Positions 1,035 through 44,881 of a stretch of 64,000 nt of DNA are shown here, piece after piece. Below the pieces are notes generated by a model. The model had not been told where the DNA came from. It saw only the letters and a list, made by a program, of their open reading frames with translations, and searched no databases. A program made the position numbers and the translations under genes. Source of the DNA: Escherichia phage ECO319P1; the sequence record OP172790. One strand, 5' to 3'. Positions within the stretch are counted from its first letter, which is position 1; each line of letters begins with the position of its first letter.

Positions 1035-1045
1035 GGGGTAACAGT

Positions 1046-14681: not shown

Positions 14682-14692
14682 AGGATAAAACA

Positions 14693-15637: not shown

Positions 15638-15649
15638 GGTAATAAAGAC

Positions 15650-16447
15650 ATGCGTAAGATTTACTTAGGTTCAGACCCAGAGCTGTTTACTCGTGATGCA
15701 AACGGCCTCGTATCATCTGTAGCTGGTAAGCTCGGTGCTGATAAGTATCACAAACGCCATGTCACGGACGACATTCGCATTCAGGAAGATAACGTGCTGG
15801 TTGAATTTGATATCAACCCGCATGGCACATTTGCAGGGTTCAACGATAACATGATGCGTGGTATCGCTGCCTGTAATGACGCTGCGAAATCTGTCGGTCA
15901 CGAAGTTGACCTGACTATCTGCTCTCACGTTTTCAGCGATGCAGAGCTTCGTACTTTCCACAAAGACGCATTCGTGTTTGGCTGTGAGCCAGACTTCAAT
16001 GCCCTGACTGGTTCTCGTAATGCGAAACCGGCTGCTGCGGATGTAGGTCTGCGTACTGCCGGTGGTCATATTCATATCGGTTATAACGAAGACCGCAACG
16101 TTGACTCTGAATCTCAGAAGATTCTGGGTGTAATGTGTGATTACTTCCTCGGTATGCCAGCTATCCTTCTGGATGGTGACGACCGTCGTAAAGAACTGTA
16201 TGGTAAAGCTGGAGCTTGCCGCTTCAAAACCTACGGTATCGAGTATCGTGTTCTGTCCAACTTCTGGACTCTGGACGATAAGATGCGTCTGTGGGCTTGG
16301 GAACAGGCTCATAAAGCATACGACTTCACTGTTGGTGATGCAATGGTGTTGGCGTCAATTGTTGACCCGGAAGAAATTCAGCGTGTCATTAATAACAATG
16401 ACAAGGCAATGGCTGAACATTACATCAAGCTGCTGGAGATTATGTAA
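15650..16447 (+). CDS. predicted COOH-NH2 ligase (GCS2-like, phage type)
   Basis: N-terminal GSDPELF and central GGHIHIGY resemble the phage COOH-NH2 ligase type 2 family as I recall it; not verified by search. Confidence 0.5.
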   Translation: MRKIYLGSDPELFTRDANGLVSSVAGKLGADKYHKRHVTDDIRIQEDNVLVEFDINPHGTFAGFNDNMMRGIAACNDAAKSVGHEVDLTICSHVFSDAELRTFHKDAFVFGCEPDFNALTGSRNAKPAAADVGLRTAGGHIHIGYNEDRNVDSESQKILGVMCDYFLGMPAILLDGDDRRKELYGKAGACRFKTYGIEYRVLSNFWTLDDKMRLWAWEQAHKAYDFTVGDAMVLASIVDPEEIQRVINNNDKAMAEHYIKLLEIM

Positions 16448-17025
16448 TGGCTTTACACGATGATTTTGCAATGTACTATAATGGTACATATGTTGGTTAT
16501 CGTAAAGATGGGGATGTAGTCCCCTTCTACATCGAAGCGGTTGATACTGACCGCTCAATCTTTGATTACTCAGAAGCGTCTGAGTCAGAGATGTTCGGTG
16601 ACCAAGCGCTGAGTGCGTTGACCTTCTACGGAAGTATCGACGGCAACCGTGCAACGATTAACCACGACGACCCGAATCTGGTTCTTGAAATGCCAGATAG
16701 TAAGTACATCCAGTTCCGTGGACGTTACTATTGGGTTCAATGGCGAGCGAACCGTTCCACTAAGAAGGGAATGGGTCAGCGTCGTCTCTCAGGCATTCCG
16801 CAATTCAACCATGAAGTCGCTCGTGCGATGTTCTCGGAGCGGTCTGCACCAAACGTAATCGCAGGATGCTTGTTACGTCAGAATAATGAACTTCACTACA
16901 AGGGTGTGGTGGTCGGTTCAATCAATGGCAACGAAGTTGTGTTGGTTTCCGAAGCTGCTCACCTGTTACGTTTTGTATCACGGGAGATGCAGGAATGCCA
17001 AGTTTCGGTAGCACAAGCGGGCTAA
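16447..17025 (+). CDS. hypothetical protein (part of ligase cluster)
   Basis: 192 aa ORF; overlaps the next gene by 31 nt. Confidence 0.4.
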   Translation: MALHDDFAMYYNGTYVGYRKDGDVVPFYIEAVDTDRSIFDYSEASESEMFGDQALSALTFYGSIDGNRATINHDDPNLVLEMPDSKYIQFRGRYYWVQWRANRSTKKGMGQRRLSGIPQFNHEVARAMFSERSAPNVIAGCLLRQNNELHYKGVVVGSINGNEVVLVSEAAHLLRFVSREMQECQVSVAQAG

Positions 17026-18506
17026 GTGAGTCGTCATTAGCAACCCTCCGCGAAGCGGGGGTGATTGACTCAGAAGGTAACTGGTTAACTGGTAACATGC
17101 CTTCACCTTTTGGTGGAGGTTTGGTTGGTTATAACACTGCTGATGTTATTCCTGACACACCACCACCAAGACCAGCACGGACAAGACACGATGGGCGACC
17201 ATTGCGTTCAAGTTCGTATGCCGACATGTTCGGTGGTCTTCGTGCTCAGCCGGTTGCTATGGATGAAATGCCTGAGACTTCAGGTGATTATTATATTTCT
17301 GGTAATGTAGAGGCCGATTCAGAAATGCAAACTATTGCGCAAATTGTTGGGCACCGTGCAACTTATCCAACTCTTGAGAAGCATCCGCTGATTGTAGGTA
17401 CAAATTTGGCAGGTGTTGAGATTGAGTTGGAGGGCATCACTGCTCGTGCTCCACGTTTCAACTACTGGACAGCAAAAGGTGATGGCTCTCTCCGTAACCG
17501 TGGGATGGAATTTGTTTGTTCATCTCCGTGGGGTGGTCGTGACCTGTACAATGCAGCCATTGAAATTGATGGTTGGTTGTTCACTGCTCAGCCAGAAGAT
17601 ACTTGGCGTTGTTCTACTCACGTACACATTGATGTTCGTGATATGACTGTGCCGCAGTTGAAGCGAATGATTCTGGCATATGCAGTTTACGAACGTATTC
17701 TGTTCAAATGCTCAGGCTTCCATCGTTACAAGAATAACTTCTGTGTAGCGTTGGGCTTCGCTCAGGAGTTGGTAACAACTCTGTCTAATGCGTGGGCACT
17801 TCCTGATAACCAGTTCATCAGTCGTTTGACTGGAAATTGGGATAAGTATTCCAGCATCAACATGCTTCCGATTCAGCAGTTCGGCTCTGTCGAATTCCGT
17901 ATCAGTGAAGCGAAGTGGCGCAAAGGTCGTCTGATTCGTTTGGTTAACCGCTTCCTGTCTCTGAAAGAGATTGCGATGCAGCCATTCGAGGGTTCAGAGT
18001 CTGAATTCATTCAGATGCTGGTCAATACCCCGATTAGCAAAATCATTCGTAAAGGTCTGCCGAAGGTTCTTCCAGATGCAGAGATGGATATCGAGATTGG
18101 TTATAAACTGGCTCACGATATCATTAGCATGGCGGCCTTGCGTCGCCTGTCTATCCGCCCTCTGGTTCCGAATCTGTCAGATGATTCACGACAGTTTAAC
18201 GTTGAAATCTTCGAGCCGGGTTATGAGCATATTATGACTCGTATCAACCGCTCAGATAATAACGTTGAGTTGCCTCGTGAAGCCCCTGCAACTATCAACT
18301 TTAGTTGGTGGTATGAAGTTGAGAATCTGATGCTTCAGATGGGTCATACCTACGAGCGCAGTTGGTTCACAGCATCAAGCAACAACCGTCAGATTCACTC
18401 ACTGTTCGAAGAGTATTGTCGTGAACGTCGTGCTGAGCGTCGTCGTCAGGATGAAATCGTTGAACGTGAAGATGATGAAGACGATACCTCTCCAGAGTTC
18501 TGGTAA
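16995..18506 (+). CDS. predicted amidoligase (glutamine-synthetase-like)
   Basis: GVEIELEG...RNRGMEFV...STHVHIDV pattern; 503 aa. Confidence 0.6.
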   Translation: MPSFGSTSGLSESSLATLREAGVIDSEGNWLTGNMPSPFGGGLVGYNTADVIPDTPPPRPARTRHDGRPLRSSSYADMFGGLRAQPVAMDEMPETSGDYYISGNVEADSEMQTIAQIVGHRATYPTLEKHPLIVGTNLAGVEIELEGITARAPRFNYWTAKGDGSLRNRGMEFVCSSPWGGRDLYNAAIEIDGWLFTAQPEDTWRCSTHVHIDVRDMTVPQLKRMILAYAVYERILFKCSGFHRYKNNFCVALGFAQELVTTLSNAWALPDNQFISRLTGNWDKYSSINMLPIQQFGSVEFRISEAKWRKGRLIRLVNRFLSLKEIAMQPFEGSESEFIQMLVNTPISKIIRKGLPKVLPDAEMDIEIGYKLAHDIISMAALRRLSIRPLVPNLSDDSRQFNVEIFEPGYEHIMTRINRSDNNVELPREAPATINFSWWYEVENLMLQMGHTYERSWFTASSNNRQIHSLFEEYCRERRAERRRQDEIVEREDDEDDTSPEFW

Positions 18507-18565
18507 GAATAAATGTGGGGTGTAAAAGCCCCAACTTCAATGTAAATAGATGAAAGGATTTTTGT

Positions 18566-20536
18566 ATGTGTGGGATTGTTCTCGCTGGTGGTAACTTAAT
18601 CGCTCGTGATGTTGAACTGTTCGGTCGTCTACTGTATGCAGATATCGTTCGTGGTGAGCATTCAACGGGTGTGTTCGCAGGGTTTCGTCCTTTTGGTCAT
18701 GACCCAATCCTGAAACTTCGTAAAGCCGCTGTTCCGGCAGATATCTTCTTACGCCGCAAAGAGTTATGGGGTGAAGTGCGTGAACACGCAGTTCCTTCAA
18801 AGACTGTTGCAAATTCTTTCACAACTGCCTATCCGAAATTTATGGTAGGCCACAACCGTTATGCAACTCAGGGTGCAATTAACGATACGAACGCTCACCC
18901 GTTCAACCACGGTAAAATCACTCTGGTTCACAATGGTACATTGACTGACCAGTCTCTGCTCCCAGACCATAAGAACTTCGCTGTTGACAGTGAAAACGTC
19001 GCATGGTCAATCAACAAAATCGGTATTGATGAAACTATTCAGAAATTGAATGGTGCATTCACTCTGGTTTGGCATAACGCCGAAGACAGCACGGTGAACA
19101 TCATCCGTAACGAAGAACGTCCATTCCATCTGGTTGAAACAACTGGTGGTGATTGGTTCGGTGCTTCGGAAGAAGACATGCTTCTGTGGTTAATTAACCG
19201 CAAGAAGTTTGCTCCAACAATCAAACGTCACTTTGAATGTGAAGTAGGTGTTCAGTACGTCTTTGACGTATCCGAAGGCTTCAAGTTCAAGGAGGAACGG
19301 AAGCATACGCTTCCAACCTTTCGCTCATATTCCTACACTGGAAGAACTGGTGGTTATTGGTATGACCAGTGGGATGATGACTATGGGTACGGAAACGGAC
19401 GAGGAACTTCAACAACTTCTCGCAACCAATCCAATAGCCAGAGCTTTAGCTCAAGCTCTTCTAGCGTAACACCGGACAGCCGTTACAAGCAGTTCAATGA
19501 TATGCTGGAAAGCCACGGCATCAACGTCAAAATGGGTGAGCAACTCCGCTTCGAGAGCTTCCAGTTTGACCAGTATCCTAAGTCTCTGGGCAAGGGTAAA
19601 ATGACCGGGTATACTGGCACTGGCGAGTATATTGAGGTTCAGGCTCACGGCACTGATATGGGCATCTTTGTTGAAGGTGCTGAGTACGATGGTAAGATTA
19701 TCTCGTGCTATGAGCAGAATTACATTCTGACAATTATCGTTCAAGACCCAAAACCTGCTCATGTTAATCAGACACTGACCCTCGGTGATTTGGTTAACTC
19801 GGCGGCAAAGGAAACTCCAATTCCTGATACAGGGATTAGTCAGGAAGAGTTGAACGAAGAGTACTACGGTGACGAGGAAGAAGACGACGGCAACGAAGTC
19901 GAAGTAACCTTGAACGGTGAGGTGTACTCAAAAAAGGAATGGGAGGGAAACGACTCATTAAATACTTGCGCAAACTGTTCCTCTCCAATCCCCTTCGACG
20001 ACGTGATTGATACGGTTGTCGATAATGGCGCTGCATTCTGCCATGATTGCGCAAAGCATTACAACCTGTTACCCCCTGAGACGGAGGAGCCAATTGCTCC
20101 TAACCGTTTCGTCTGCCAAAGCTGTGCCAACGAATTGCCGGAAGATTTAGAATCGGCAAAGCCGGGTGTCTGCATTCCTTGTCTTTGCGCTGTAACTAAA
20201 GACAACAATACGGAAATGGCACGTCAACAGTTAATCGAAAAGTACGACCGTTGGGAATCCAATTTGATGCCAGAGGAAGTGGTCACTCCACTGCTTCCGA
20301 AACCAACTGAAGTCTCTCTCGGTGAAATTTCACTGATTCGCAAGAAGTTGAAAAACAACTTGCTGGTTACTGTTAAGCAGTGGATGAAGATGAACAACTG
20401 TGGTTGGTGTCAAAAGCCAATCCAGTGGGTTGATGCTGAAGCCACTGAATTTGTTGGTCAGCAGCCATGCTGTCCGGGATGCTCCAAGAAATTAGAGATG
20501 GGCATCCTTCCAAAACCTATCAATAAGGATAAATGA
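18566..20536 (+). CDS. class II glutamine amidotransferase (Ntn) domain fused to Ser-rich linker and three C-terminal zinc ribbons
   Basis: MCGI N-terminal nucleophile, GHNRYATQG, VHNGTL; CxxC pairs in the C-terminal 200 aa; contains 12-mer copy 6. Confidence 0.7.
   Translation: MCGIVLAGGNLIARDVELFGRLLYADIVRGEHSTGVFAGFRPFGHDPILKLRKAAVPADIFLRRKELWGEVREHAVPSKTVANSFTTAYPKFMVGHNRYATQGAINDTNAHPFNHGKITLVHNGTLTDQSLLPDHKNFAVDSENVAWSINKIGIDETIQKLNGAFTLVWHNAEDSTVNIIRNEERPFHLVETTGGDWFGASEEDMLLWLINRKKFAPTIKRHFECEVGVQYVFDVSEGFKFKEERKHTLPTFRSYSYTGRTGGYWYDQWDDDYGYGNGRGTSTTSRNQSNSQSFSSSSSSVTPDSRYKQFNDMLESHGINVKMGEQLRFESFQFDQYPKSLGKGKMTGYTGTGEYIEVQAHGTDMGIFVEGAEYDGKIISCYEQNYILTIIVQDPKPAHVNQTLTLGDLVNSAAKETPIPDTGISQEELNEEYYGDEEEDDGNEVEVTLNGEVYSKKEWEGNDSLNTCANCSSPIPFDDVIDTVVDNGAAFCHDCAKHYNLLPPETEEPIAPNRFVCQSCANELPEDLESAKPGVCIPCLCAVTKDNNTEMARQQLIEKYDRWESNLMPEEVVTPLLPKPTEVSLGEISLIRKKLKNNLLVTVKQWMKMNNCGWCQKPIQWVDAEATEFVGQQPCCPGCSKKLEMGILPKPINKDK
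19863..19874 (+). repeat. copy 6 of 12-mer ACTACGGTGACG
   Basis: exact match, read as Y-Y-G-D. Confidence 0.9.
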
Positions 20537-20537
20537 T

Positions 20538-20771
20538 ATGGATAATTCAATGAGTGAAGTGAAGGTTTTGCGTCTGGATTCACCTGTGGTGGTTCGAAAA
20601 GTTCCAATGACTGACTTCGGTAGTGATATGCTCCGAGCCATTCGTCGCTTCCAAACTGAGGCGTATGAACGTGCAAAAGGTCAGAAGGTGGAAATCCCTT
20701 ATCCTGTGTGTATTCACATGATGATGTCGGATTACTGCAAGCTGAAAGGCATCCAAGTAACCAATGGCTGA
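20538..20771 (+). CDS. hypothetical protein
   Basis: 77 aa ORF. Confidence 0.4.
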   Translation: MDNSMSEVKVLRLDSPVVVRKVPMTDFGSDMLRAIRRFQTEAYERAKGQKVEIPYPVCIHMMMSDYCKLKGIQVTNG

Positions 20772-20976
20772 TAAAGATGTCGAAAAGGCTCGCAAGGAAA
20801 GCGAGTCTTGGCACAACCGTCAGATTGGAAACTTGTTAGAAGAAGAGTGGGAGTACGCAAAACAAATGGGTACTCAGGAGGGCCAAGAGGCCATCTGGTA
20901 TCTCACTCTTTCTTATGAAACACTGGAAGCAGAAATCATGGAACACAAACGTGATATCCGTGAACTTCATCTTTGA
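20764..20976 (+). CDS. hypothetical protein
   Basis: 70 aa ORF. Confidence 0.4.
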   Translation: MADKDVEKARKESESWHNRQIGNLLEEEWEYAKQMGTQEGQEAIWYLTLSYETLEAEIMEHKRDIRELHL

Positions 20977-21046
20977 GTGAGTTATTTATAGGGTGTCGGT
21001 GAAGCGCCCTATGTGAAATTCATTCTCAACTAAAAGGTACTTATCA

Positions 21047-22246
21047 ATGGCACGTTTAGCAATCTACTCCCACGCTCCTTCTGATTCTGTTAATGCACTT
21101 AAAGCGCACTTATCAGTGGAAGGCGTTGACCTGATTAAAATCAAGCGTCAGAACAGCCGCTTCGCTGGTCGTGAAGGCGATGTAATCATTAACTATGGTT
21201 CATCCTCTTTCCCAATGGAACGTGTTGGTCGTGGTCGTCTGCTGAACAATCCGGGAGCAATCTCTCTGGCTTCTAACAAACTTCGTGCATTCGAGGTGTT
21301 CCAGAACGCTGGGGTTAAGACTGTAGAGTGGACTAATCAACACTCAATCGCTCAAGGTTGGGTAGAACAAGGTGGTATGGTTTATGCAAGAACAACGCTT
21401 CAAGGACATTCTGGTGCCGGTATCGTTATTGGCTACGGAAATCCTGCCGGAGTGGGAGATGCGGGCGACGTACAGGTTACTAGCACCCTTCCTCGCGCAC
21501 AACTGTACACCAAAGCAATCCTGCAAGAACGTCGAGAGTTCCGAATCCATGTAATGGATGGTAAGATTACTTACGTTCAGCAGAAACGTCGTCGTGATGG
21601 TTTCCGTGAGAATGAAACCTACAGCAATCTGGTTCGTAACCACCACACTGGTTGGATTTATGCAACTCAGAACGCTGATGTGTGTGACGAAGCGAAGCGC
21701 GAAGCAATCAAAGCAATCGAAGCTTTAGGTCTGGACTTCGGTGCAGTAGATGTAATCACACGCCGTGGTGAAGCATGGGTTCTCGAAGTCAACACTGCTC
21801 CGGGCATGTCTGGCACTAACCTCGAAACTTATGCAAACAACTTCACTCGCCTGATGAACGGTGAACCCGTTGAAGGTGTAGTGGTTGATATGTCTATCCC
21901 TGTGGAGACGAACAATGATAACCGCAACACCCGTAATGAACGCCAGTCTGGCAATCGCAATACACAACCTCAACCAGAACAACCTCAACCAGAACAACCG
22001 ACGCCAACCCCTGTCGCTACCCCAGCGCCAACAGCACCAGCCGAAGCGCCGGTTTCCTCAGCGACAACCCGCAACACCAATGGTACTGCATTAATTGATA
22101 ACGGTGTTTACAAACTGTTGGTTGATGGTAATGCCACTGTTGGTAAATTCGTTCAAGATTGTGCCCACTTCGAAATTCTTGGCTGGGAGGTTCCGGTCGA
22201 GCATGAAGATGCAACTATTGGGGAACTCCTGTGCACTTTGAACTAA
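21047..22246 (+). CDS. ATP-grasp ligase (RimK/glutathione-synthetase-like) with Pro/Glu-rich linker and extra C-terminal domain
   Basis: GAVDVITRRGEAWVLEVNTAPGMSG ATP-grasp core; QPQPEQPQPEQPTPTP linker. Confidence 0.65.
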   Translation: MARLAIYSHAPSDSVNALKAHLSVEGVDLIKIKRQNSRFAGREGDVIINYGSSSFPMERVGRGRLLNNPGAISLASNKLRAFEVFQNAGVKTVEWTNQHSIAQGWVEQGGMVYARTTLQGHSGAGIVIGYGNPAGVGDAGDVQVTSTLPRAQLYTKAILQERREFRIHVMDGKITYVQQKRRRDGFRENETYSNLVRNHHTGWIYATQNADVCDEAKREAIKAIEALGLDFGAVDVITRRGEAWVLEVNTAPGMSGTNLETYANNFTRLMNGEPVEGVVVDMSIPVETNNDNRNTRNERQSGNRNTQPQPEQPQPEQPTPTPVATPAPTAPAEAPVSSATTRNTNGTALIDNGVYKLLVDGNATVGKFVQDCAHFEILGWEVPVEHEDATIGELLCTLN

Positions 22247-22476
22247 GTAATGGTGACAGTGTAGAACTGCGGGGAAACTCACAGGCTGCACGTTTCATCT
22301 ACTTGGCTATGCCCTTCCAAGGACTCCAGTTTGCGGAGGGGCAAGAGAAGCCAAGAATTACAATGACCCCAGAGGTCAAGGCAATCATCCGGTTGTCTGA
22401 AAAGTTTCGTGCTCGCTTAATTGAGCGGGCTTTGAAAGTCGAGGACTTGTTCCAAGACGAAGACATTCCCTTTTAA
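22231..22476 (+). CDS. hypothetical protein
   Basis: 81 aa ORF. Confidence 0.35.
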   Translation: MHFELSNGDSVELRGNSQAARFIYLAMPFQGLQFAEGQEKPRITMTPEVKAIIRLSEKFRARLIERALKVEDLFQDEDIPF

Positions 22477-23952: not shown

Positions 23953-24918
23953 TTGAAATTCGAGAAATTCCAATCTCTCGTAAATGAGTCTATGAAGAAC
24001 GTTGGAGGTTTCCTTCGGGATTCCTCCTTCGGGAAACGTAAGGCCATTGTTACCGAGAAAATCCACGGTGCTAACTTCTCTGTCTACTTCGGTTGTAAAG
24101 ACAATGTGGTTGGTATCAACTTCGCTTCTCGTTCTCAGATGCTGTGCCCTGAAACTAACTTCATGAATTGCCAACGCTACTTCACTGAAGAAAAGATTCA
24201 GGAATTGCTGGAACATGCTTCCACAATCATGGCTCTGGACAAATGTGAACTTCGTATCATCGGTGAAATTTACGGTGGCATGGATATCGCTGGAATCAAA
24301 CCCGTTCAGCGAGAAGTCCACTACTCCGGTGATATTGGCTTCCGTGTGTTCCATGCACAAATTGCCAACAACGAAACTGGTGAAGTCTTTGACTACAACT
24401 GGAAGAATGTGAAAGCTCTTGCCAAAGATTTTGGCTTTGAGGTCGCACCAATTGTGGCTGAAGGTCTGACCTTTGAACAGGCTTATGCACTTGACCAGAA
24501 GGTTAAGTCTGCTCTGTCTGACAAAGACCAGATTTGTGAAGGTTACTGTATCCGCGTTGATGCAGATGAAGAAGGTCAAGCACCTTTAATCTTCAAGAAG
24601 CGTAATACTGAGTTCCTTGAAACCAAGGGCACTGTGAAGGCTCCTCAGAATACTGTAGAGCAGACGCAACTCGGTATGGAAGCAATGGCACGTATTGGTG
24701 CATTCATCACACCACAGCGTGTTTCTAACGTCAATAGCCACCACGGTTTCGATAGTCCAAAAGACTTCCAGAAACTGATGGAAGCTGTACTTGATGATGT
24801 GCTCAATGAGTACAAAGCCGAGTATGACGTAGACCTTCGCAATGAGTTGGTCTGGAAAGAAATTAAGCGTTCAGTTGGAGCACAGGTAGTGCCGCTGGTA
24901 CGTGAAGTTCTGCTGTAA
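23953..24918 (+). CDS. RNA ligase-like nucleotidyltransferase (Rnl2-type)
   Basis: motif I lysine in TEKIHGANF; TTG start after GGAG RBS. Confidence 0.6.
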   Translation: MKFEKFQSLVNESMKNVGGFLRDSSFGKRKAIVTEKIHGANFSVYFGCKDNVVGINFASRSQMLCPETNFMNCQRYFTEEKIQELLEHASTIMALDKCELRIIGEIYGGMDIAGIKPVQREVHYSGDIGFRVFHAQIANNETGEVFDYNWKNVKALAKDFGFEVAPIVAEGLTFEQAYALDQKVKSALSDKDQICEGYCIRVDADEEGQAPLIFKKRNTEFLETKGTVKAPQNTVEQTQLGMEAMARIGAFITPQRVSNVNSHHGFDSPKDFQKLMEAVLDDVLNEYKAEYDVDLRNELVWKEIKRSVGAQVVPLVREVLL

Positions 24919-27054: not shown

Positions 27055-28854
27055 ATGTCAAAAGTATACGGAGCTAAACGGATTATCGGTGACTCACCTT
27101 GCCCAACTTGTACAGCGGCAGGTCGTGACAGAACCGGTAATCACTTGCAACACTGGATTAACGATGATACAGGCGAAGAGTGGGTTTATTGCGGACGTGA
27201 TGGTTACTATGAAAAGGTAACTGATGCAAACCGTGCTGACCTTGAATCTGTTCGTCATGTTCATCGTGAATTAACTGATGAAGAACGTGCAGCGGTTCTC
27301 GCTGAGGTTGACGAGTTGCCAATTCAGGAACTCACATCTCGTGGTATCCGAAAGGAAATCGCTGAACGTTATGGTGTTCGTGTTGGCCTGTCCAGCACTA
27401 ACCGTGAACAAATCTCTCACTTCTATCCGAAAGAGAAAGATGGTGAGGTGGTCGCTTATAAAGTTCGTAGTCTTGAGCCGAAGTATTTCTATGCGGTTGG
27501 TTCAGGTAGCGGATGTGATTTCTTTGGCATGTCTCAGGCTCGTCTGGGTGATGTGTACAGTGGCAAACTGTTCGTATTCGAAGATGAACTGAGTGCAATG
27601 TCAGGTTTCCAAGCTCTCATTGACGCATCCAAGTCAACTTACAAACCAGCATGTGTGGCTTTGCCAGATGGTGCAGGTTCGGCAGCAAGTGCATTTGCAC
27701 GTTGTCGTCAGTTTGTTGAGTCATTCCAAGATATCGTGGTCTGTATGGATAACGATGAAGCGGGTGATGATGCAGTTAACAAGCTGAGAGCGATGTATCC
27801 AAACATCAAGATTGCTCGTATTCCGAAGGGTATCTACGGTGACGGTAAGCATATCAAAGACGCCAATGACATGATTATGGCTAAGCGTTCTTTGGAGTTA
27901 AACAACTGCTTACGCTTCAATGCTGCAAAAGAATCTCCAGCAGGTTCAACAACTGTAGCGGAATGTATTGAAGATGCGCTGAAGAAACCTGAATGGGGTC
28001 TGAGTTATCCGTGGAAAGGTCTTACTGACTTAACCTTTGGTTTACGTTATGGTGAGGTGATTGCAATTGGTGGTGGTGTAGGTGGTGGTAAAACATTACT
28101 GGCACACGAACTGAGTGCTCACTTAATCAACGTTCACAAAGAGAAAGTTGGTGCATTCATGTTGGAAGAAACTGTAGGTAATACCATCAAGAACATTGCT
28201 GGTAAATCTGCAAATATTCCATTCCATCGTCCAGATGCTGAGTTCGACCCAGAACTGCTGAAAAGCGAAGCACTGAAATACGATGGTCACTTGTTCCTGT
28301 ATCGTAACTTCGGTCAAAACGATTGGGAAGATATCAAACGTTGTATGCGTTTCTGGGTTGTTGAACATGGTGTCAAGTTCATCTTCCTCGATAACATCAC
28401 AGCATTGGTATCACACTTGACAGCAACTGAGATTAACACTGAAGTTGCGAAGATTGCTGTTGAGTTGGCAGGTATGTGTAACGAGTTGGACTTCACTTGT
28501 TTTGTATTTAGCCACTTGAACCCACCGAAAGGTGGTGCTCCTCACGAGGAAGGTGGTCAAGTACAAGAGGTGCAGTTCACGGGTTCCCGTGCTCTGATGC
28601 GTTTCTCTCAGTTAATTCTGGGCTTTGAACGCAACAAGCAGGCAGATGGTGATGCTCGTAACCTTTCTCAGATTCGTCTGTTGAAAGACCGTAACTTCGG
28701 GCAGACAGGTCTTGTACCAACATCTTATAATCCAGTGACAGGCCGCTTAACACAGCGTCGTGATGAAGATTATGACCCGAAAAATCCGTTCCGCTTACCG
28801 GGTGAGCATGAGGACGACATGCAGGAAGATAATGGAAAGGATAAACCATTTTGA
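27055..28854 (+). CDS. bifunctional primase-helicase (T7 gp4-like)
   Basis: N-terminal Zn-binding Cys cluster, Toprim acidic motifs (FEDE, MDNDEAGDD), Walker A GGGVGGGKT. Confidence 0.85.
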   Translation: MSKVYGAKRIIGDSPCPTCTAAGRDRTGNHLQHWINDDTGEEWVYCGRDGYYEKVTDANRADLESVRHVHRELTDEERAAVLAEVDELPIQELTSRGIRKEIAERYGVRVGLSSTNREQISHFYPKEKDGEVVAYKVRSLEPKYFYAVGSGSGCDFFGMSQARLGDVYSGKLFVFEDELSAMSGFQALIDASKSTYKPACVALPDGAGSAASAFARCRQFVESFQDIVVCMDNDEAGDDAVNKLRAMYPNIKIARIPKGIYGDGKHIKDANDMIMAKRSLELNNCLRFNAAKESPAGSTTVAECIEDALKKPEWGLSYPWKGLTDLTFGLRYGEVIAIGGGVGGGKTLLAHELSAHLINVHKEKVGAFMLEETVGNTIKNIAGKSANIPFHRPDAEFDPELLKSEALKYDGHLFLYRNFGQNDWEDIKRCMRFWVVEHGVKFIFLDNITALVSHLTATEINTEVAKIAVELAGMCNELDFTCFVFSHLNPPKGGAPHEEGGQVQEVQFTGSRALMRFSQLILGFERNKQADGDARNLSQIRLLKDRNFGQTGLVPTSYNPVTGRLTQRRDEDYDPKNPFRLPGEHEDDMQEDNGKDKPF

Positions 28855-29488: not shown

Positions 29489-30043
29489 ATGTTACTTTCT
29501 GCACCCCAACTGCATAACTTAATCGACGATGGTGTTATTGATGCGTTACATGAAAACGTTAACTCAGCAAGTATCGACGTTCGTATTGGCTCTGAAATTC
29601 TGGTGGAAGCTAAGGTCAGCGAACTCACCGCTCCCGTGGACATCGCAGCTAAGGAATCTCCTCAGTTCGACAAAGTGACAATCCCCGAAGAAGGCGTTGT
29701 TATTAAGCCGGGTCAGTGCTTCTTGGCTCACACCGTTGAGACATTTAACCTGCCCGACACTATCAGTGGTCAATTCATTGAACGTTCCACTGTTGCTCGT
29801 TGTTTCCTTGAACACATGCAGGCTGGTTGGGCTGATGCTGGTTGGCATGGCGCTCAGCTCACTCTTGAGTTCAAGAACATGAACGAACACCACTCCCTGT
29901 TAATCAAGCCGGGTATGCGTATCGGTCAGATGGTATTCTTCCAGCACGAAACTGTTGGTGAGGATTCCTATGCTGTAAAAGGCAACTACAACAACCAACG
30001 TGGTGCAACTCAAGCTTACTCAGGAGAAGGTCATAATGTATAA
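29489..30043 (+). CDS. dcd: dCTP deaminase
   Basis: dUTPase-fold Dcd-like N-terminus; 184 aa. Confidence 0.7.
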   Translation: MLLSAPQLHNLIDDGVIDALHENVNSASIDVRIGSEILVEAKVSELTAPVDIAAKESPQFDKVTIPEEGVVIKPGQCFLAHTVETFNLPDTISGQFIERSTVARCFLEHMQAGWADAGWHGAQLTLEFKNMNEHHSLLIKPGMRIGQMVFFQHETVGEDSYAVKGNYNNQRGATQAYSGEGHNV

Positions 30044-33429: not shown

Positions 33430-33816
33430 TTTTGCACCATGAAGTCTGGCATAGCACCACAGATTGCTAATGCTTGGCCTCAAGTCCGTGAAGTCGATAA
33501 GTTGACTAACTACGGTGACAAGGATAAGATGGGTTCATACTCACTTGCCACTGTTCCCGAAGGTTTTGTGTTCAACATCTATGGTCAATACCATTGGAAT
33601 CGGAGAAACGCTGGTTATGGCACTTCTTATGAGCATCTTGGGATGGGGCTGTCTAGCGTCGCTGACTTTATGGTTAATCATAAGGTTCAAACTTTGGGTC
33701 TGCCTCGAATTGGTTGTGGACTTGCTGGAGGCGATTGGGGGATTGTAGAACACCTAATCAAACACCACTTTGCACACACCGACATTGAAGTAATTGTCTA
33801 CGAACTGGAGAAGTAA
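33346..33816 (+). CDS. macro domain protein
   Basis: KLTYKKGCLIAALKNKEVEAIAHQAN aligns with the macro N-terminal G...AN motif; start placed at ATG 33346. Confidence 0.65.
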   Translation: MKLTYKKGCLIAALKNKEVEAIAHQANCFCTMKSGIAPQIANAWPQVREVDKLTNYGDKDKMGSYSLATVPEGFVFNIYGQYHWNRRNAGYGTSYEHLGMGLSSVADFMVNHKVQTLGLPRIGCGLAGGDWGIVEHLIKHHFAHTDIEVIVYELEK

Positions 33817-34943
33817 TGTTAAAGTTAAAAGTACTGGAAGAACTCGGTAAGCCATACAAAATCTTCACAGACCATGTGGAGAGCAGTGCTATTGAGCAGT
33901 TTGTTGCAGTGATGCAGCAGCCTGATGTGAAACAAGGTGCATTAATGCCTGATGTTCATGCAGGTTATGTTCTGCCAATTGGTGGTGTAGTTGCTACTGA
34001 GTGGACAATCTACCCATCGTTTGTCGGTTACGACATTGGTTGTGGTGTCTGCACCATGCCAACGGATATCAGTGCTCTCGACTTACTGGAAAACCCAGCT
34101 AAGTATAAAGCAGCAGTTGAAAAGGTTGTACCTGTGGGCTTCACTGTCCATCAGCAACCATTCGACTTAGCTGAACTGGAACGCCACATTGGTCGTGCTC
34201 CAGAAAGTATTCGTGACATTGCTGAGAGCCATCTGACTCAGGTTGGTACTCTTGGTGGTGGTAATCACTTTGTTGAAATCGGTATCGCTGAGAAAGATGG
34301 TCGTGTTCACATCAGCATTCACTCAGGCTCTCGTGGCATGGGTGCTCGTGTTGCTGAGAAATACATGCAGCTTTCAGGTGGTGAAGGTATCAACCCAATT
34401 GACACTCGTGAACCACTTGGTCGTGAGTATCTGGCTGCTATGAATTACTGCTTACGTTGGGCATTGTTCAACCGTAAGATGATGGTTAAGAATATTATGG
34501 AAGAGTTAGGTCTGGAGTTTAACACCTATCGTACACCTGATATCTTCATCAACCGTAATCATAACCACGCAGAATTCAAGGATGGTTTGTGGATTCATCG
34601 TAAGGGAGCTACACATGCTGAAGATGGAATGTTCGGCGTTATCCCAGCTAACATGCGTGATGGAGTTTACATTGTACGTGGGCGCGGTAACCCTGACTCT
34701 CTTTGCTCTTCTTCTCACGGCGCTGGTCGTGTCATGTCTCGGTCAAAAGCCAAAAAGACTTTCTCTCTGGAAGACTTCCAGTATCAGATGGGTAATGTCG
34801 ATGCTGATGGGTTTACTATTGATGAAAAGCGTATTGACGAAGCACCGGGTGCATATAAAGACATTCACGAAGTGATGAAAAATCAGACTGACTTGATTGA
34901 CATCATTGACCATGTTAAACCAGTTGTAAACGTTAAGGGTTAA
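33816..34943 (+). CDS. rtcB: RtcB-type RNA ligase
   Basis: GGNHF, HNHAEF and SSSHGAGR motifs. Confidence 0.8.
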   Translation: MLKLKVLEELGKPYKIFTDHVESSAIEQFVAVMQQPDVKQGALMPDVHAGYVLPIGGVVATEWTIYPSFVGYDIGCGVCTMPTDISALDLLENPAKYKAAVEKVVPVGFTVHQQPFDLAELERHIGRAPESIRDIAESHLTQVGTLGGGNHFVEIGIAEKDGRVHISIHSGSRGMGARVAEKYMQLSGGEGINPIDTREPLGREYLAAMNYCLRWALFNRKMMVKNIMEELGLEFNTYRTPDIFINRNHNHAEFKDGLWIHRKGATHAEDGMFGVIPANMRDGVYIVRGRGNPDSLCSSSHGAGRVMSRSKAKKTFSLEDFQYQMGNVDADGFTIDEKRIDEAPGAYKDIHEVMKNQTDLIDIIDHVKPVVNVKG

Positions 34944-37137: not shown

Positions 37138-38973
37138 ATGGAAATCACATCAAGCTGGGACAAACCGTTCCAACTCGAACAGAAAGTGGCTCACATTATT
37201 AGCCAACAAGCAAAGCATGGATGCGACTTCAATAGTCGTAATGCTCATTGGTATGTTCATCTGTTAACTGAACGTATCATCAACATTGATTTGCAGTTGG
37301 TTCCAACTCTGCCACCTATGATGCACAAAGGCACTGAATACAAGGCTCCGTTCAAGATGAATGGTAAGCCGAAGGTGTTTGTCCAGAAGTATATGGACGC
37401 TCAAGGTCTGACAGAGGATATGGTAGGTGGCCCGTTTACAGCGGTGTGGTTTACCCCGTTCGACCCAAGTAAAACTTCACGTCTAAAAGATGTGATGTTG
37501 GACATGGGGTGGATGCCTACTGAATGGAACCAGAAGAAGATGCCGTTTCAACTTTGGACGTATAAAAAGCGTCTGGAGAAGACGACCTTCCGCAAGTTCA
37601 TGGAAGAGCAGACAAGTACCGACGAACGTGAACTATTTCTTCCCTTAGTTAATGGTTTTGTTGCTCAACATTTTGTTGGGAAATCAAAAGGTTACATGAA
37701 AGCAATCCTCAGTGCTCTGGGGTTTGATTTAAAGCGTGTACCGAATTTTGACCAGATTAAGAAGCGTCTTTTGTTGAGTCAGTTCTGGCCGACTTCTCCA
37801 AAAATCACTGAAGATTCATTTGAGTCAGTAAGTGAGGAAGAAGGTCATTCACTGAAACTCCTGAAAGAGCGTATGGTGTGGTCGCACCGTCGTTCACTGA
37901 TTCAGGGTTTGATTGAACTGACTCGTCAGGATGGTAAAATCTCTGGTGAAGCTAACCCATGTGCAACTCCGACAGCACGTATGAGACACAAGGGTATTGT
38001 AAACATTCCAGCCGCAGGTGCTCCTTTCGGTGAAGAGTGTCGCTCATTGTTCCGTGGTAATAAACGTACTGGAACAAAAGCAAAGATTATTCATAAACTT
38101 ACTGCACAGATGGTTGAATCTGGTAAGTTTCGTCGTAAACCGTTCACTAATATCATGCAGGTTTCAAATGGTAAAGGTGGATGGGAAGACGAAGGTCATG
38201 TATCATTCCTGATTCCAGCGGGGCAAGATGCTTTCGTTGGTGGTGATGGTGCAGGTCTTGAACTTCGAATGTTGACTCACTACCTGATTGCAGTATCCAA
38301 AATGCTTCTGAAAGACGCTGAGGAAGCGGGTAATGATAAGTTAATCCGTTACTACGGTGCCGCTTTACAGTCAGCATATGAGTATCGTGAGGTTCTTCTG
38401 AATGGTGATATTCACAGTCACAACCAGAAGCTCGCAGGTCTGCCAACTCGTAAGTCAGCTAAGACGTTTATCTACGCATTCTTATATGGTGCTGGTGATG
38501 CGAACTTGGGTGGTCAACTTGGTGCAGGCCGTGAAGAGGGTGCAGCTTTACGTGCTCGATTCTTGAAAGAATGTCCTTGTATTCCAGTTCTGATTGAGTG
38601 GGTTCAGGATTTTGCCAAGAAGAATGGTTGGGTTCCGGCAATTGATGGTCGTAAACTTATCATGCGTCGTGACCCTTTCAGTGGCGAAGTTATGGCTCAC
38701 AAAGCACTGAATACAATGTTACAAGCAGCAGGTTCAATCGTGATGAAATATGCAGGTTGTTATCTGACTTCTTGGAATGCTCGTGATTGCTTAGATGCAC
38801 ATCAGGTTATCATGATGCACGATGAATATCAGTTCACTTGCAAATGGGAAGATGTTGAAGCTTTACGTCGTAACATTGACTCGTGTGTTAAGAAAGCTGG
38901 TGAATATTTGAAAATGGAATGTCCATTAGCGTCTGACTCAATGTTAGGTGCAAACTGGCTTCATACCCACTAA
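37138..38973 (+). CDS. family A DNA polymerase, polymerase domain only (T7 gp5-like)
   Basis: motif A DGAGLELRM, motif B KTFIYAFLYGAG, motif C HDEYQF. Confidence 0.85.
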   Translation: MEITSSWDKPFQLEQKVAHIISQQAKHGCDFNSRNAHWYVHLLTERIINIDLQLVPTLPPMMHKGTEYKAPFKMNGKPKVFVQKYMDAQGLTEDMVGGPFTAVWFTPFDPSKTSRLKDVMLDMGWMPTEWNQKKMPFQLWTYKKRLEKTTFRKFMEEQTSTDERELFLPLVNGFVAQHFVGKSKGYMKAILSALGFDLKRVPNFDQIKKRLLLSQFWPTSPKITEDSFESVSEEEGHSLKLLKERMVWSHRRSLIQGLIELTRQDGKISGEANPCATPTARMRHKGIVNIPAAGAPFGEECRSLFRGNKRTGTKAKIIHKLTAQMVESGKFRRKPFTNIMQVSNGKGGWEDEGHVSFLIPAGQDAFVGGDGAGLELRMLTHYLIAVSKMLLKDAEEAGNDKLIRYYGAALQSAYEYREVLLNGDIHSHNQKLAGLPTRKSAKTFIYAFLYGAGDANLGGQLGAGREEGAALRARFLKECPCIPVLIEWVQDFAKKNGWVPAIDGRKLIMRRDPFSGEVMAHKALNTMLQAAGSIVMKYAGCYLTSWNARDCLDAHQVIMMHDEYQFTCKWEDVEALRRNIDSCVKKAGEYLKMECPLASDSMLGANWLHTH

Positions 38974-40333: not shown

Positions 40334-40355
40334 TTATTGCACATTATAATAAGAG
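40331..40355 (+). promoter_or_regulatory. phage promoter element (TAATTATTGCACATTATAATAAGAG)
   Basis: conserved element copy. Confidence 0.55.
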
Positions 40356-40360
40356 TCACT

Positions 40361-40816
40361 ATGGCAAGAAAACCCACTGTAATTGATAACTCATTCCTTG
40401 TTGATATGTTCAATTCTATTGACGGTATCGGAGATTTGGGAAGTTGGATGCAAGATGTAATTTATGGAAGTGCTCGTCTTGGTCATTCTAACCCATCAGC
40501 AGCAGTGGCAATTTTCAAGGCTTTAGCGACTCTTCCAGTTATTAGCTTTGACACTGTAAAGCACTTCGTAAACAACAGGTCAGAGGTAATTGACCAACGT
40601 ACATTCAGTGACAGACATGTTTATGCCTTCATGAACAGAGTCTTATCAGCACGGAAAGGTATTGAGTTTTACTATGAACGTAAGACTGGTCAGAAATTTC
40701 ATAGCATTGAACCAGTGGAAGATGTTGATTCTACTGATTTTGTCTATGCTGATGGTGTAAAAGCCAGTGAATTAGTTTACGAAAATGTTGTAAGAAATCA
40801 TGGAACCGAACACTAA
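40361..40816 (+). CDS. hypothetical protein
   Basis: start at ATG 40361 downstream of promoter element. Confidence 0.5.
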   Translation: MARKPTVIDNSFLVDMFNSIDGIGDLGSWMQDVIYGSARLGHSNPSAAVAIFKALATLPVISFDTVKHFVNNRSEVIDQRTFSDRHVYAFMNRVLSARKGIEFYYERKTGQKFHSIEPVEDVDSTDFVYADGVKASELVYENVVRNHGTEH

Positions 40817-40891
40817 TGTATAGTGTCTAATGAGCGAAGGACGTTTTAACTGAGCCTTCACAATTGAGTTTTATATAAGGAAATATATCAT

Positions 40892-41659
40892 ATGTCTACT
40901 GCAATCCCTTCTACCTCCTCTTCTAAAAAATCTCGCACTGTTTATGATGCAATTGAAAACGATGTTTACGACGCACGTATCGTCCGCTTCATTGGTCTGG
41001 GTGTTCAGGAACAACCTGAATGGCAGGGTGAGAAGAAATCTCCAGCCTTTAAATGCTCCATCTCTTTTGAACTGATTGATATCGACGCAACTGGTCGCAC
41101 TTTCGAAGGTGATGAAGATAAAGTCGGTAAGCCGATTGACCCTCGTCCTTCTTGCATGTTCAAAGATTACTACCTGTTCCCAGGCGCTAAACGTGGCGGT
41201 GTGTTCGACCTGTGTAAAGCAATCGACCCATCAATCACTGAAGTTCCTCGTAATCTGGAATGGTTCATGGATAAGCTGGGTGAAGTTGTGAGTGTTGGTG
41301 TTGGTTCTTATACTACCAAAGCTGGTGTAACTCGTAACAAAGTTACTTCTGTTGGTGCTGTAAGTTCTCGTAACAAGCCTAAAGTTGGTGAAGCACGTTC
41401 TGAACTGGTTGGTTTCAACCCGTATGTAGATTCTCCGGAAATGGTTCAGGCCTACGGTAAAGTTTACAAATTCCAGCGTGACATGCTGACTGAAGCACAC
41501 GATAAAGCGAATATCCCGTTTGCTGGTAAAGAGCCAGTTAACGACAGCGGTGATGGTGAGCGTCCAAGCAACACTGAAACTCGTGAAGAGCAGAAGTACT
41601 CCAAGACTTCTAATCAAACTCCTAACGATGTTCCTTTCGACGACGATATCCCGTTCTAA
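40892..41659 (+). CDS. ssb: single-stranded DNA-binding protein with host-type acidic tail
   Basis: C-terminus ends DDDIPF as in E. coli SSB; followed by terminator. Confidence 0.6.
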   Translation: MSTAIPSTSSSKKSRTVYDAIENDVYDARIVRFIGLGVQEQPEWQGEKKSPAFKCSISFELIDIDATGRTFEGDEDKVGKPIDPRPSCMFKDYYLFPGAKRGGVFDLCKAIDPSITEVPRNLEWFMDKLGEVVSVGVGSYTTKAGVTRNKVTSVGAVSSRNKPKVGEARSELVGFNPYVDSPEMVQAYGKVYKFQRDMLTEAHDKANIPFAGKEPVNDSGDGERPSNTETREEQKYSKTSNQTPNDVPFDDDIPF

Positions 41660-41684: not shown

Positions 41685-41707
41685 GAGGCCTTCGGGCCTC
41701 TTTATTT
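41685..41707 (+). terminator. intrinsic terminator (UUCG tetraloop)
   Basis: GAGGCC-TTCG-GGCCTC then TTTATTT. Confidence 0.7.
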
Positions 41708-41731: not shown

Positions 41732-42289
41732 ATGGCAAAGCGACTAAGTGCTCCAGTTCCAAAGAAGGAACATTATAAAGACTTCGATGAATTATATCGT
41801 GAGTATTGGGCACCACTTCAGAAACAATTCTTCTACATGGAAAAGGATTATCAGCTTGCTGAGGATTTAGCTCAGGAAACGATGCTCCGAGTGTGGCAGT
41901 ATTGGGACAGAATCCAGTGGGATAAACTTGGTGGTGTGATTGGTACAATTGCCAACAACGTCCGGTACGGTTATGTTCGAAAAGAATTTGACCGAGTTGA
42001 TACAGAGATGTACGACAACATTCTGGATTTTGAATGTCATGATGATGGCTTAACTGACCCAATTCGTGATGTATTAAATAATGAGGCAAGCACTTTTGTT
42101 CAGTATGCTTTTGAGAAGCTTAAACCACAGGAACGTGAGTTGTTCTCGGATGTTTATCTGAAGAACCTGAAAACAAAAGATGTTGCAAAGAAACATGGTA
42201 TGACTACTGGCCATATCTATGTTCAATTGTTCCGTATTCGAACTCAACTGGTTACTAACCTTGAGCGTCACGATATTGGAACAAACTAA
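41732..42289 (+). CDS. phage sigma factor (sigma70 family, ECF-like size)
   Basis: region 2-like AEDLAQETMLRVWQYW and region 4 HTH-like LKTKDVAKKHGMTTGHIYVQLFRIR. Confidence 0.6.
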   Translation: MAKRLSAPVPKKEHYKDFDELYREYWAPLQKQFFYMEKDYQLAEDLAQETMLRVWQYWDRIQWDKLGGVIGTIANNVRYGYVRKEFDRVDTEMYDNILDFECHDDGLTDPIRDVLNNEASTFVQYAFEKLKPQERELFSDVYLKNLKTKDVAKKHGMTTGHIYVQLFRIRTQLVTNLERHDIGTN

Positions 42290-42301
42290 GGAGAATATAA
42301 C

Positions 42302-42502
42302 ATGGAAGTTGTATACCAGAACGGCATGTATGAAGTAAAAGTTAATCGGTACGATAATGAGTACCTAGTTGTTAACGTGAAGACTGATGTGGTTGAGGCT
42401 CGTGAATCGGCATTGCCCACAGCAGAATACAAAGCTGATGCTCTTCGTGAAGTTACGCTGAAACGTAATGAAGTTAAGGGTAAAGCGGAGGCAGCACAAT
42501 AA
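42302..42502 (+). CDS. hypothetical protein
   Basis: 66 aa ORF. Confidence 0.35.
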   Translation: MEVVYQNGMYEVKVNRYDNEYLVVNVKTDVVEARESALPTAEYKADALREVTLKRNEVKGKAEAAQ

Positions 42503-43398
42503 TGCGAGTCCTCCTTGATTGCGACATTCTAAGATATCAAATCGGTTCAGTGAAAGCTGCTCACCCATTCTTAAAGGGAGAGTTTGTTCCTGCTCCTGAG
42601 TCGGAGATTTGTCGGTTGGTCGAGGATTTGATTCAGCATGTGATTAAGATTAATAAGGCAGACAGTTATGTCTGTCCTTTATCCGGTAAAGGTAATTTCC
42701 GATTGGACATTGCCAAACAGGAACCCTATAAGGGTAATCGAGACCCAAACGTAACACGACCTTTTCACTATGACACTGTTGGTGACTACATCATTAAGAA
42801 CCACCCTCACGTAATTGTTGATGGGATGGAAGCAGATGATTGGCTAGGCATCGAGCAGCGTAAAGACCCAGAGAATACTTGTATTGCGTCAAGGGATAAA
42901 GACCTTGGAACCGTATTTGGTTATCACTACCGTTGGGCTTGTGGCGAATATCAGCCAGAAAGAACAATTCACTGGATAACTCCATACGAAGCAACTGAGT
43001 TCTTCTTCCACCAAATGCTCACAGGCGACAACACAGATAATATTCTTGGGTGTGGTAAGCGTGAGATGGTTAAGTGGGGAGGCAAAATGATGCTTCGCCG
43101 CAAGGGTGTTGGTAAGGGTGCTGCTGATAAGATTTTAGCAACTTGCTCAACCGTACAAGAAATGTATGATGCTGTTAAGGCTGAATACGAAAAAATTTTT
43201 AGTGACGAGCACGAGGATGTGATGCTCGAAAATGCCAGATTGCTCTACATTGGGCAAACACCAGACAAACTGTTTGAGTGGGACTGGCTTGACTACCAAC
43301 TAAGTAAGGATACTAACGATGAACTTTTACCAACTGAACAGCCTGAATGCACCGGACACCCTACTGATGGTGAATCTGAGCCTTATCACGAAGATTGA
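42502..43398 (+). CDS. 5'-3' exonuclease / flap endonuclease
   Basis: N-terminal VLLDCDILRY and SRDKDLGTV motifs. Confidence 0.65.
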   Translation: MRVLLDCDILRYQIGSVKAAHPFLKGEFVPAPESEICRLVEDLIQHVIKINKADSYVCPLSGKGNFRLDIAKQEPYKGNRDPNVTRPFHYDTVGDYIIKNHPHVIVDGMEADDWLGIEQRKDPENTCIASRDKDLGTVFGYHYRWACGEYQPERTIHWITPYEATEFFFHQMLTGDNTDNILGCGKREMVKWGGKMMLRRKGVGKGAADKILATCSTVQEMYDAVKAEYEKIFSDEHEDVMLENARLLYIGQTPDKLFEWDWLDYQLSKDTNDELLPTEQPECTGHPTDGESEPYHED

Positions 43399-43792: not shown

Positions 43793-44881
43793 ATGAAAAA
43801 AGAGCTATTTGCTGTTGATAAGAACGACAACATTAAACATTGGACTGTCGAAACTAATGGTGCTGAGATTATTGTCTGTCATGGACGATACCAAGGCAAG
43901 ATGCAGAAGAAAGTGACAGTCTGTAAAGCTAAGAATATTGGGAGGGCGAATGAAACAACACCCGAAGACCAAGCGATTCTGGAAGCAGAAGCTAAGTACA
44001 CCAAGCAAATCGACAAGTGCTATCGGGCGACTATTGAAGAGGCAAGACGAGTCGGTCAAGTCCTTCCTATGCTCGCTCATAATTTCCTTGACCACGGGCA
44101 TCGTATTAGCTTTCCTTGCTATGTCAGTGCTAAGCTGGATGGTGTACGATGCGTTGCAACTGTGGAAGATGGTGCTGTCACACTAACAAGTCGTGGTGGT
44201 AAGGAATATCCTTGCCCAGAGGCAATTCATGATGAACTGGTTCACCTTAGTTATCTCACTGGAATTACTAAGTTTGATGGCGAGCTTTATATTCATGGTA
44301 CGAAGCTTCAACACATTGTGTCGGCTGTTAAAAAACCTAACGACTTGACTCCGAAGTTGAAGTATTGTATCTTTGACTTACCGAACACTGATAAGTGGGA
44401 AGACCGTTGGTTAAAGCTCAAAGACATTAAGAATAAATATCGTCTTGACCACATGGAAATCGTTGATTGTATCAAAGTTGAGAACAAACTCTCAGCGGAA
44501 ATGATGCTTCACAAATACATGGGTCAAGGTTACGAGGGTCTGATGCTTCGTAATCTGGATGGGAAGTATGAATACAACCATCGTTCAGCAGATTTACAGA
44601 AGTGGAAAATCATGCAAGACCTCGAAGCCAAGGTAATTAGTGTTGCAGAAGATAAGAATGGTGAGGGTGTCCTGACTTGCCATATAGCGGGTGAACCCGA
44701 TAAAATCTTCGATGTTAAAATGCGTGGGACACATGAGGAACGTCTGGTTGACAATCAGAAGAAGTTGATTGGCAAGTGGATTGTTGTTATTTATCAGGCA
44801 TTTACAGAAGCAGGGTTGCCTCAGTTCCCGGTAGGCAGCCATGTCCGTGAATGTGATGAAGAGGGGAACCCAATTGAATAA
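43793..44881 (+). CDS. ATP-dependent DNA ligase
   Basis: motif I KLDGVR; 362 aa. Confidence 0.8.
   Translation: MKKELFAVDKNDNIKHWTVETNGAEIIVCHGRYQGKMQKKVTVCKAKNIGRANETTPEDQAILEAEAKYTKQIDKCYRATIEEARRVGQVLPMLAHNFLDHGHRISFPCYVSAKLDGVRCVATVEDGAVTLTSRGGKEYPCPEAIHDELVHLSYLTGITKFDGELYIHGTKLQHIVSAVKKPNDLTPKLKYCIFDLPNTDKWEDRWLKLKDIKNKYRLDHMEIVDCIKVENKLSAEMMLHKYMGQGYEGLMLRNLDGKYEYNHRSADLQKWKIMQDLEAKVISVAEDKNGEGVLTCHIAGEPDKIFDVKMRGTHEERLVDNQKKLIGKWIVVIYQAFTEAGLPQFPVGSHVRECDEEGNPIE

Follow-up and report, generated by a model that had tools for sequence, protein, structure and literature searches.

The stretch of DNA analyzed here, 64,000 nt from Escherichia phage ECO319P1 (OP172790; hereafter the window), carries at positions 40892..41659 on the plus strand a single open reading frame (ORF), running from an ATG start to a TAA stop, for a 255-residue protein that is probably the SSB (single-stranded DNA-binding protein) of the phage. 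ECO319P1 has been placed in the Grimontviridae near Cronobacter phage GAP52, and the product matches exactly WAX14230.1, which is recorded as 'hypothetical protein ECO319P1_00071'. The DNA of the gene is 95.7% identical to that of GAP52 (Grimontviridae, Crifsvirus) and ~82% identical to that of Salmonella phage 7-11 and its relatives. Nine of the ten matching GenBank records give the product as 'hypothetical' and one (SeKF_80) as an SSB, as does the phiEco32-like record Ptacy1532 for its orthologue. A search of the literature on the SSB of Kuravirus or phiEco32, and on ECO319P1, found nothing relevant, and the SSB label for the 40892..41659 product is one that we infer rather than read directly from the sequence. 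The protein is predicted to consist of a flexible N-terminal tail (aa 1-12; 40892..40927), a globular core (aa 13-215; 40928..41536), a disordered, polar, net-acidic linker (aa 216-246; 41537..41629) and a C-terminal tip, VPFDDDIPF (aa 247-255; 41630..41656), all on the plus strand. Based on the evidence set out below, we propose, with a probability of roughly 0.6, that it is a replicative SSB whose tip docks onto both the phage replisome and the SSB-interacting enzymes of the host.

The preliminary description of this DNA had reported an ORF ending in the DDDIPF tip of the host SSB, and the sequence bears this out. The phage protein terminates in ...TPNDVPFDDDIPF* (...SNQTPNDVPFDDDIPF) and the E. 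coli K-12 ssb product, read from NC_000913.3, in ...NEPPMDFDDDIPF* (...SNEPPMDFDDDIPF), the last seven residues, FDDDIPF, being identical in the two. The C-terminal segment of E. coli SSB (SSB-Ct, MDFDDDIPF) is known as the site on which many genome-maintenance proteins dock (PMC5872125, PMC3159472), and the phage protein has the same bacterial-type arrangement of an acidic run, a hydrophobic residue and Pro-Phe-COOH after a disordered linker. A scan of the whole window in six frames for stops that follow a run of acidic residues and then an aromatic one found only two real ORFs, the one at 40892..41659 and a conserved 81-residue ORF at 22231..22476. Among 110 homologues collected for the 255-residue protein, 101 end in Pro-Phe, with a consensus of FDDD[IVA]PF, and DDDIPF itself is found unchanged 33 times. 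In the 101 Pro-Phe-ending homologues, Asp is found at positions -6, -5 and -4 in 89, 81 and 91 cases, respectively, and Phe or Tyr at -7 in 65. The match to the host extends further in two metagenomic members (P0021 and P0053), whose last 13 and 12 residues are those of E. coli SSB (NEPPMDFDDDIPF), and Privateervirus phages of Proteus and Cronobacter have the tip NEPSMDFDDDVPF. Searched with a profile at a threshold of E ≤ 1e-3, a set of 1.84 billion representative proteins yielded 266 clusters, and the termini of the remote relatives (~20-25% identity) are an acidic stretch followed by PF, PY, PW, DW, EF or EW. Since the tip is kept across the family, chance does not explain it, and since the remote relatives end similarly, the tail is old and under selection.

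That the C-terminus copies the tip of E. coli SSB, as was first suggested, holds for the amino acids and fails for the DNA. Of the third-codon positions of the seven shared residues, two are the same as in E. coli ssb, and the 12-residue matches of P0021 and P0053 share four to five of twelve. With the synonymous sites scrambled in this way, it is the peptide on which selection acts. The 7-residue identity, and even more so the 12-13 residues of P0021 and P0053, could be taken to mean that the tip was captured recently from the host ssb gene by recombination as a copy of the DNA. We give this almost no credence in view of these third-codon counts, of a blastn search with the 3' 120 nt of the gene that found no match in 5,426 E. 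coli genomes, and of a tip that spans the whole family and superfamily. As judged from the sequences, the word copy therefore applies to the peptide and not to the DNA, and the tip is an old family trait; an ancient, rather than recent, capture of the host ssb tip is possible.

An oligonucleotide/oligosaccharide-binding (OB) fold prediction had been put forward as a check on the SSB assignment, and its outcome is favorable. The AlphaFold2 model, built on an alignment of 83 sequences, has a mean predicted local distance difference test score (pLDDT) of 88.4 and a predicted template-modeling score (pTM) of 0.80, with residues ~13-215 folded confidently and residues 216-255 predicted to be disordered (pLDDT 54-67). 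Long strands at residues 24-39, 52-66 and 85-95, helices at 103-127 and strands at 132-141 and 147-156 give the order beta1-beta2-beta3-helix-beta4-beta5, which is that of the five-stranded OB barrel, and this is followed by a C-terminal helical extension, so that the core is modeled as a divergent OB fold. In a Foldseek search of the PDB the top match was PrgE (E 8e-4), followed by bacterial SSBs, PriB and RPA, that is, by OB proteins that bind single-stranded DNA (ssDNA), and in BFVD the same fold is found in many uncharacterized phage proteins, among them DUF669 proteins. The core has many near-invariant aromatic (Y26, F33, F53, F90, W124, Y140 and Y178) and basic (R29, R32, K49, K54, R101, R169 and R196) positions in the 83-sequence alignment. 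The linker (pI 4.55) differs in sequence and length among the homologues, and the tail (pI 4.07) ends in Phe. The N-terminal tail is of low confidence in the model (pLDDT ~58 over the first 10 residues) and contains an Ile5-Pro6 pair that is invariant across the 83 homologues. By analogy with PrgE, in which filament contacts are made through the N-terminal tail (PMC11137577), this pair could form a motif through which subunits touch one another in cooperative binding.

By sequence, the protein is not a homologue of the bacterial SSBs. A Pfam hmmscan with E values up to 10 returned no family, neither PF00436 nor DUF669 included, and with E. coli SSB as the tblastn query against the window only tail residues 138-178 were matched (E 0.08); homology to the canonical bacterial SSB (PF00436) was rejected on these grounds. 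A tblastn search of the window with T7 gp2.5 gave nothing relevant, and PDB sequence searches with the single sequence and with two family profiles matched no solved structure. In PHROGs, the protein belongs to phrog_6599 (E 8e-107 over its full length) and also matches phrog_862 (E 7e-9), as do 113 and 112, respectively, of 113 remote relatives; these two families and phrog_2544 carry the label 'unknown function'. The remote relatives also show a weak HMM link to an 'SSB' PHROG, and two of the 113 weakly match DUF669 (E 3.5e-4).

Comparison with known systems places the protein among the non-canonical phage SSBs. It shares with E. coli SSB the plan of an OB core joined by a disordered linker to an acidic tip, the last seven residues being the same, but the core is ~200 residues long rather than ~115 and has no detectable sequence homology, and the linker is polar and charged whereas that of E. 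coli SSB is rich in Gly, Gln and Pro. T7 gp2.5, a non-canonical OB-fold SSB of 232 residues, has a gp4-type primase-helicase and a family A polymerase as working partners; its acidic tail, which competes with ssDNA for the OB cleft, has an essential terminal Phe that docks the phage polymerase and helicase. The phage protein is similar in size and has an acidic, Phe-ended tail, and its genome likewise provides a primase-helicase of the gp4 type as well as a family A polymerase, but membership of the gp2.5 family by sequence or fold similarity was not found. The DUF669 (PF05037)/N4 SSB group was proposed in 2016 to comprise diverged OB-fold SSBs with acidic tails, and DUF669 proteins are found where the phage has no other SSB (PMC4889955). 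The members of this group are similar in size to the present protein and are encoded in phage replication modules, but N4 SSB (gp45) ends in ...SLFGKK and has no acidic Pro-Phe tip, and membership of the N4 SSB family was rejected, profile-profile hhalign against an N4 SSB alignment being not significant (A1 and A3, probabilities of 0.3% and 1.4%) and single-sequence hhalign negative. A structural relationship to this group is possible on the basis of the models, the links to DUF669 and N4 SSB being suggestive and not confirmed. PrgE of the Enterococcus plasmid pCF10 (PDB 8S4S/8S4T) is the best structural match, at a moderate level only, and is an atypical, probably phage-derived OB-fold DNA binder that binds double-stranded DNA (dsDNA) and ssDNA equally (PMC11137577); it differs in its size of 144 residues, in not being a replication protein and in that no acidic Pro-Phe tip of the SSB-Ct type is reported. 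Finally, HK620 SSB is a phage SSB with a tip resembling DDDIPF, and its last six residues (NDYPPF) are needed to load the phage protein Sak4 onto SSB-coated ssDNA (PMC5928155). Unlike the present protein, HK620 SSB is distantly homologous to bacterial SSB; the partner demonstrated for it is a protein of the phage, and near 40892..41659 no gene resembling that for Sak4 was seen. As modeled, the 255-residue protein is very probably a structurally unsolved phage SSB of the non-canonical OB-fold type whose acidic tail terminates in Phe, a kind that is already known.

The genomic context is that of a replication gene. A family A DNA polymerase is encoded at 37138..38973 (Pfam DNA_pol_A and the GAP52 annotation), a 5'-3' exonuclease/flap endonuclease (FEN) at 42502..43398 (Pfam 5_3_exonuc_N, under the curated cut-off, and the GAP52 annotation) and the ATP-dependent DNA ligase of the replication module at 43793..44881, all on the plus strand, as is the T7 gp4-like primase-helicase at 27055..28854 (Pfam DnaB_C, Helic-prim_T7_N and Toprim_2). 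The gene lies between the polymerase on one side and sigma factor, exonuclease and ligase genes on the other in ECO319P1, GAP52, the 7-11-type phages (SeKF_80) and phiEco32, and the distant homologue Mangalitsa_045 (Chaseviridae) lies between a polymerase and a 5'-3' exonuclease in a T7-like module. Searches of the window by tblastn with E. coli SSB and T7 gp2.5 gave no other SSB candidate, and the 13 kb of GAP52 that are absent from the window (terminase, portal and head genes) have no annotated SSB. The gene has a good ribosome-binding site in the form of a Shine-Dalgarno-like AAGGAA (40877..40882, plus strand), read from the sequence ~10 nt before the ATG, and is followed 26 nt past the stop by a hairpin resembling an intrinsic terminator, GAGGCC-TTCG-GGCCTC with six pairs of which five are G-C, and then TTTATTT (41685..41707, plus strand). 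Its fraction of E. coli-preferred codons, 0.75, is the highest of the 27 genes measured, the others ranging from 0.45 to 0.68. The strong codon bias and the strong terminator fit an abundant, stoichiometric protein.

It should be noted that a promoter for the gene is not claimed. The motif TAATGTATA, which we take to be the phiEco32 gp36-dependent promoter element and for which a literature search gave no confirmation, is found on the plus strand at 40814..40822, 70 nt upstream of the ATG, and at 30034..30042; these two are its only occurrences in the window and represent no statistical enrichment. A sigma-70-like match (40864-40891) runs right up to the ATG and is unable to serve the SSB gene.

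The same structural and contextual data bear on whether the product might be an OB-fold protein other than the replicative SSB, such as a DNA-binding accessory, a transcription co-activator or a decoy that titrates host SSB-binding enzymes. N4 SSB is an activator of late transcription, and in several genera the gene discussed here is immediately upstream of that for the phage ECF-like sigma factor. The equal binding of dsDNA and ssDNA by PrgE, which is no classical SSB, and the 'unknown function' label of the three PHROG families also lean this way. We nevertheless regard such a role as improbable, given that no other SSB candidate was found in the window or is annotated in the part of GAP52 beyond it, that phages encoding a helicase-primase and a polymerase of their own normally require an SSB, that the very high codon bias suits a stoichiometric protein and that the three-part plan of core, linker and tip is the SSB plan. 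Hence, the designation phage SSB in the preliminary description is supported by the predicted fold, the context and the codon bias, which fit a replicative SSB, and has to be modified in that the protein is not a bacterial SSB homologue by sequence.

We now put forward a hypothetical mechanism in which the core (aa 13-215) would coat the ssDNA made by the T7-like replisome of the phage while the ~30-residue disordered acidic linker would display FDDDIPF-COOH. The tail would be a handle for docking, in which the Phe at the very end, with its carboxylate free, would enter a hydrophobic/basic pocket of the partner proteins, and the Asp run of the tip would sit on a basic ridge of the partner. Selection on the protein keeps the tip identical to that of host SSB. 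We propose that the phage ssDNA-SSB filaments recruit or titrate the SSB-interacting enzymes of the host and also contact the phage polymerase and helicase, the primase-helicase and the family A polymerase being candidate partners of the tail. Because the tip is that of the host, over 12-13 residues in some relatives, the phage filaments are taken to bind the pockets used by host SSB. What the analysis shows is the ORF, the conserved tip, the fold as predicted, the genomic context and the codon bias, whereas binding to ssDNA and the identity of every partner are what we infer. The recruitment of, or competition for, host SSB partners that the preliminary description had suggested is plausible; for host proteins being among the partners we see roughly even odds, and host and phage roles are not mutually exclusive.

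Several observations weigh against the engagement of host proteins. With a full T7-like replisome of its own, the phage may not need host partners. Position -3 of the tip is highly variable (I, V, A, M, C, R, K or S), and relatives deviate from the host tip: phiEco32 and Mangalitsa, both of which have E. coli as host, end in DDNDSPF and GGTGMPF, respectively, while LAh_8 has DDDAPF and Vp_R1 has DDDMPF. The SSBs of the gamma-proteobacterial hosts of these deviating relatives are taken to end in DDDIPF, only that of E. coli having been checked. Furthermore, four of the 110 homologues (P0045, P0060, P0085 and P0106) have 16-18 extra residues, 'APxGLQ...', past DDDIPF, so that the Phe carboxylate is not free in these proteins.

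Some of these points also speak for a tail that serves only the replisome or recombination proteins of the phage, its likeness to the host then being no mimicry but an old physico-chemical solution common to both, an acidic run plus Pro-Phe-COOH. Such a tail could work with the primase-helicase of the T7 type, the PolA, the FEN and the ligase that the phage encodes, and the terminal Phe of T7 gp2.5 is established to contact the T7 polymerase and helicase. Acidic and aromatic ends are found throughout the superfamily and many of them are non-bacterial (DDDAPF, DDDKPF, DNDRPF, -PW, -PY and -DEF), as is the DDNDSPF of phiEco32 on E. coli. The requirement of HK620 SSB for NDYPPF to load the phage-encoded Sak4 (PMC5928155) points in the same direction. 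However, a host identity of seven residues (12-13 in relatives) at scrambled synonymous sites exceeds the generic need for acidic residues plus Phe, and a second, unrelated small protein of the same phage keeps the same tip. We therefore consider a tail reserved for phage partners to be possible but somewhat doubtful, and favor the replicative SSB that docks on phage and host proteins alike.

The 'APxGLQ' extension was considered as a second docking motif and rejected, as an overlapping HNH homing-endonuclease gene explains it better. In two of the three extension loci checked (L020, 2501..3295 and 3282..3707; L022, 127..924 and 914..1357; and L021, 2001..2783), the SSB gene has its 3' end in overlap with an HNH_3 homing-endonuclease gene, and the extension thus probably came with the mobile element. 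In GAP52 an HNH endonuclease gene (L001, 11634..11999) lies directly upstream and overlaps the start of the SSB gene, where the ECO319P1 window has only a 75-nt intergenic spacer (40817..40891). Both ends of the SSB gene thus appear to be homing-endonuclease insertion sites. The genes that flank it in the window, both on the plus strand, encode a 159-residue protein without assigned function (40337..40816) and the ECF-like sigma factor (41732..42289); their G+C contents of 0.38 and 0.40 and their codon bias of 0.47 are lower than those of the SSB gene (G+C 0.45, codon bias 0.75) and of most genes.

The second tip-bearing ORF, at 22231..22476 on the plus strand, has a GTG start and encodes an 81-residue protein (ECO319P1_00039) that ends in FQDEDIPF. 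This ORF shares 16 nt with the end of a RimK-like ATP-grasp gene (21047..22246), to which it is translationally coupled, and follows the ATP-grasp gene in Grimontviridae of Cronobacter, Salmonella, Proteus and Aeromonas. Within its family the terminal Pro-Phe is invariant and preceded by acidic residues, and close relatives have the exact FDDDIPF terminus. The protein has no Pfam match and no OB fold; it is modeled, at a modest pLDDT of 72, as a hairpin and two helices with a disordered tip. It may act at SSB-Ct pockets as a free decoy or adaptor, or else be a ligase substrate. One may go further and suppose that the SSB docking peptide is a portable module carried by two unrelated proteins that together take over or block the SSB interactome of the host, the 81-residue protein acting as the free decoy or adaptor and the OB-fold SSB as the recruiter on phage ssDNA. 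In a bolder version, the adjacent ATP-grasp ligase would act on such tips and cap the essential Phe carboxylate. We consider the portable module unlikely, and the replicative SSB with a docking tip remains our preferred interpretation of the 40892..41659 product.

In the ATP-grasp protein a small C-terminal domain comes after a long Pro/Gln/Thr-rich linker, and the gene is the last of a large amidoligase-type cluster (13809..22246, plus strand) that also encodes a phiEco32-like COOH-NH2 ligase, an Amidoligase_2 protein, a class-II glutamine amidotransferase and two ORFs of ~300 residues without assignment. Elsewhere on the plus strand of the window, a region of auxiliary metabolism (6380..10053) encodes a PRPP-synthetase-like protein, a nicotinamide/nicotinate phosphoribosyltransferase (NAD salvage) and a TerC-family membrane protein. 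Two RNA ligases, of the T4 Rnl2 type and RtcB, are encoded at 23953..24918 and 33816..34943, which suggests a capacity for tRNA/RNA repair, possibly as a counter to host anticodon nucleases.

The essence of our proposal is a phage SSB with an acidic, Phe-ended tail, which has been textbook knowledge since T7 gp2.5, and a specialist would therefore be only mildly surprised by it. Phage SSBs are triggers or targets of some defense systems and are also useful reagents, and for these reasons their correct annotation matters. If the proposal is true, it would assign a function to a widespread family of 'hypothetical' phage proteins (phrog_6599/862/2544; 266 cluster representatives) and give the phiEco32/7-11-type podophages and the Chaseviridae their missing SSB. 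The protein would then be a natural chimera, with a non-bacterial OB core and a bacterial SSB-Ct, that may help to separate the roles of tip and core, and it would help to ask whether virulent phages with a replisome of their own still tap the host SSB interactome.
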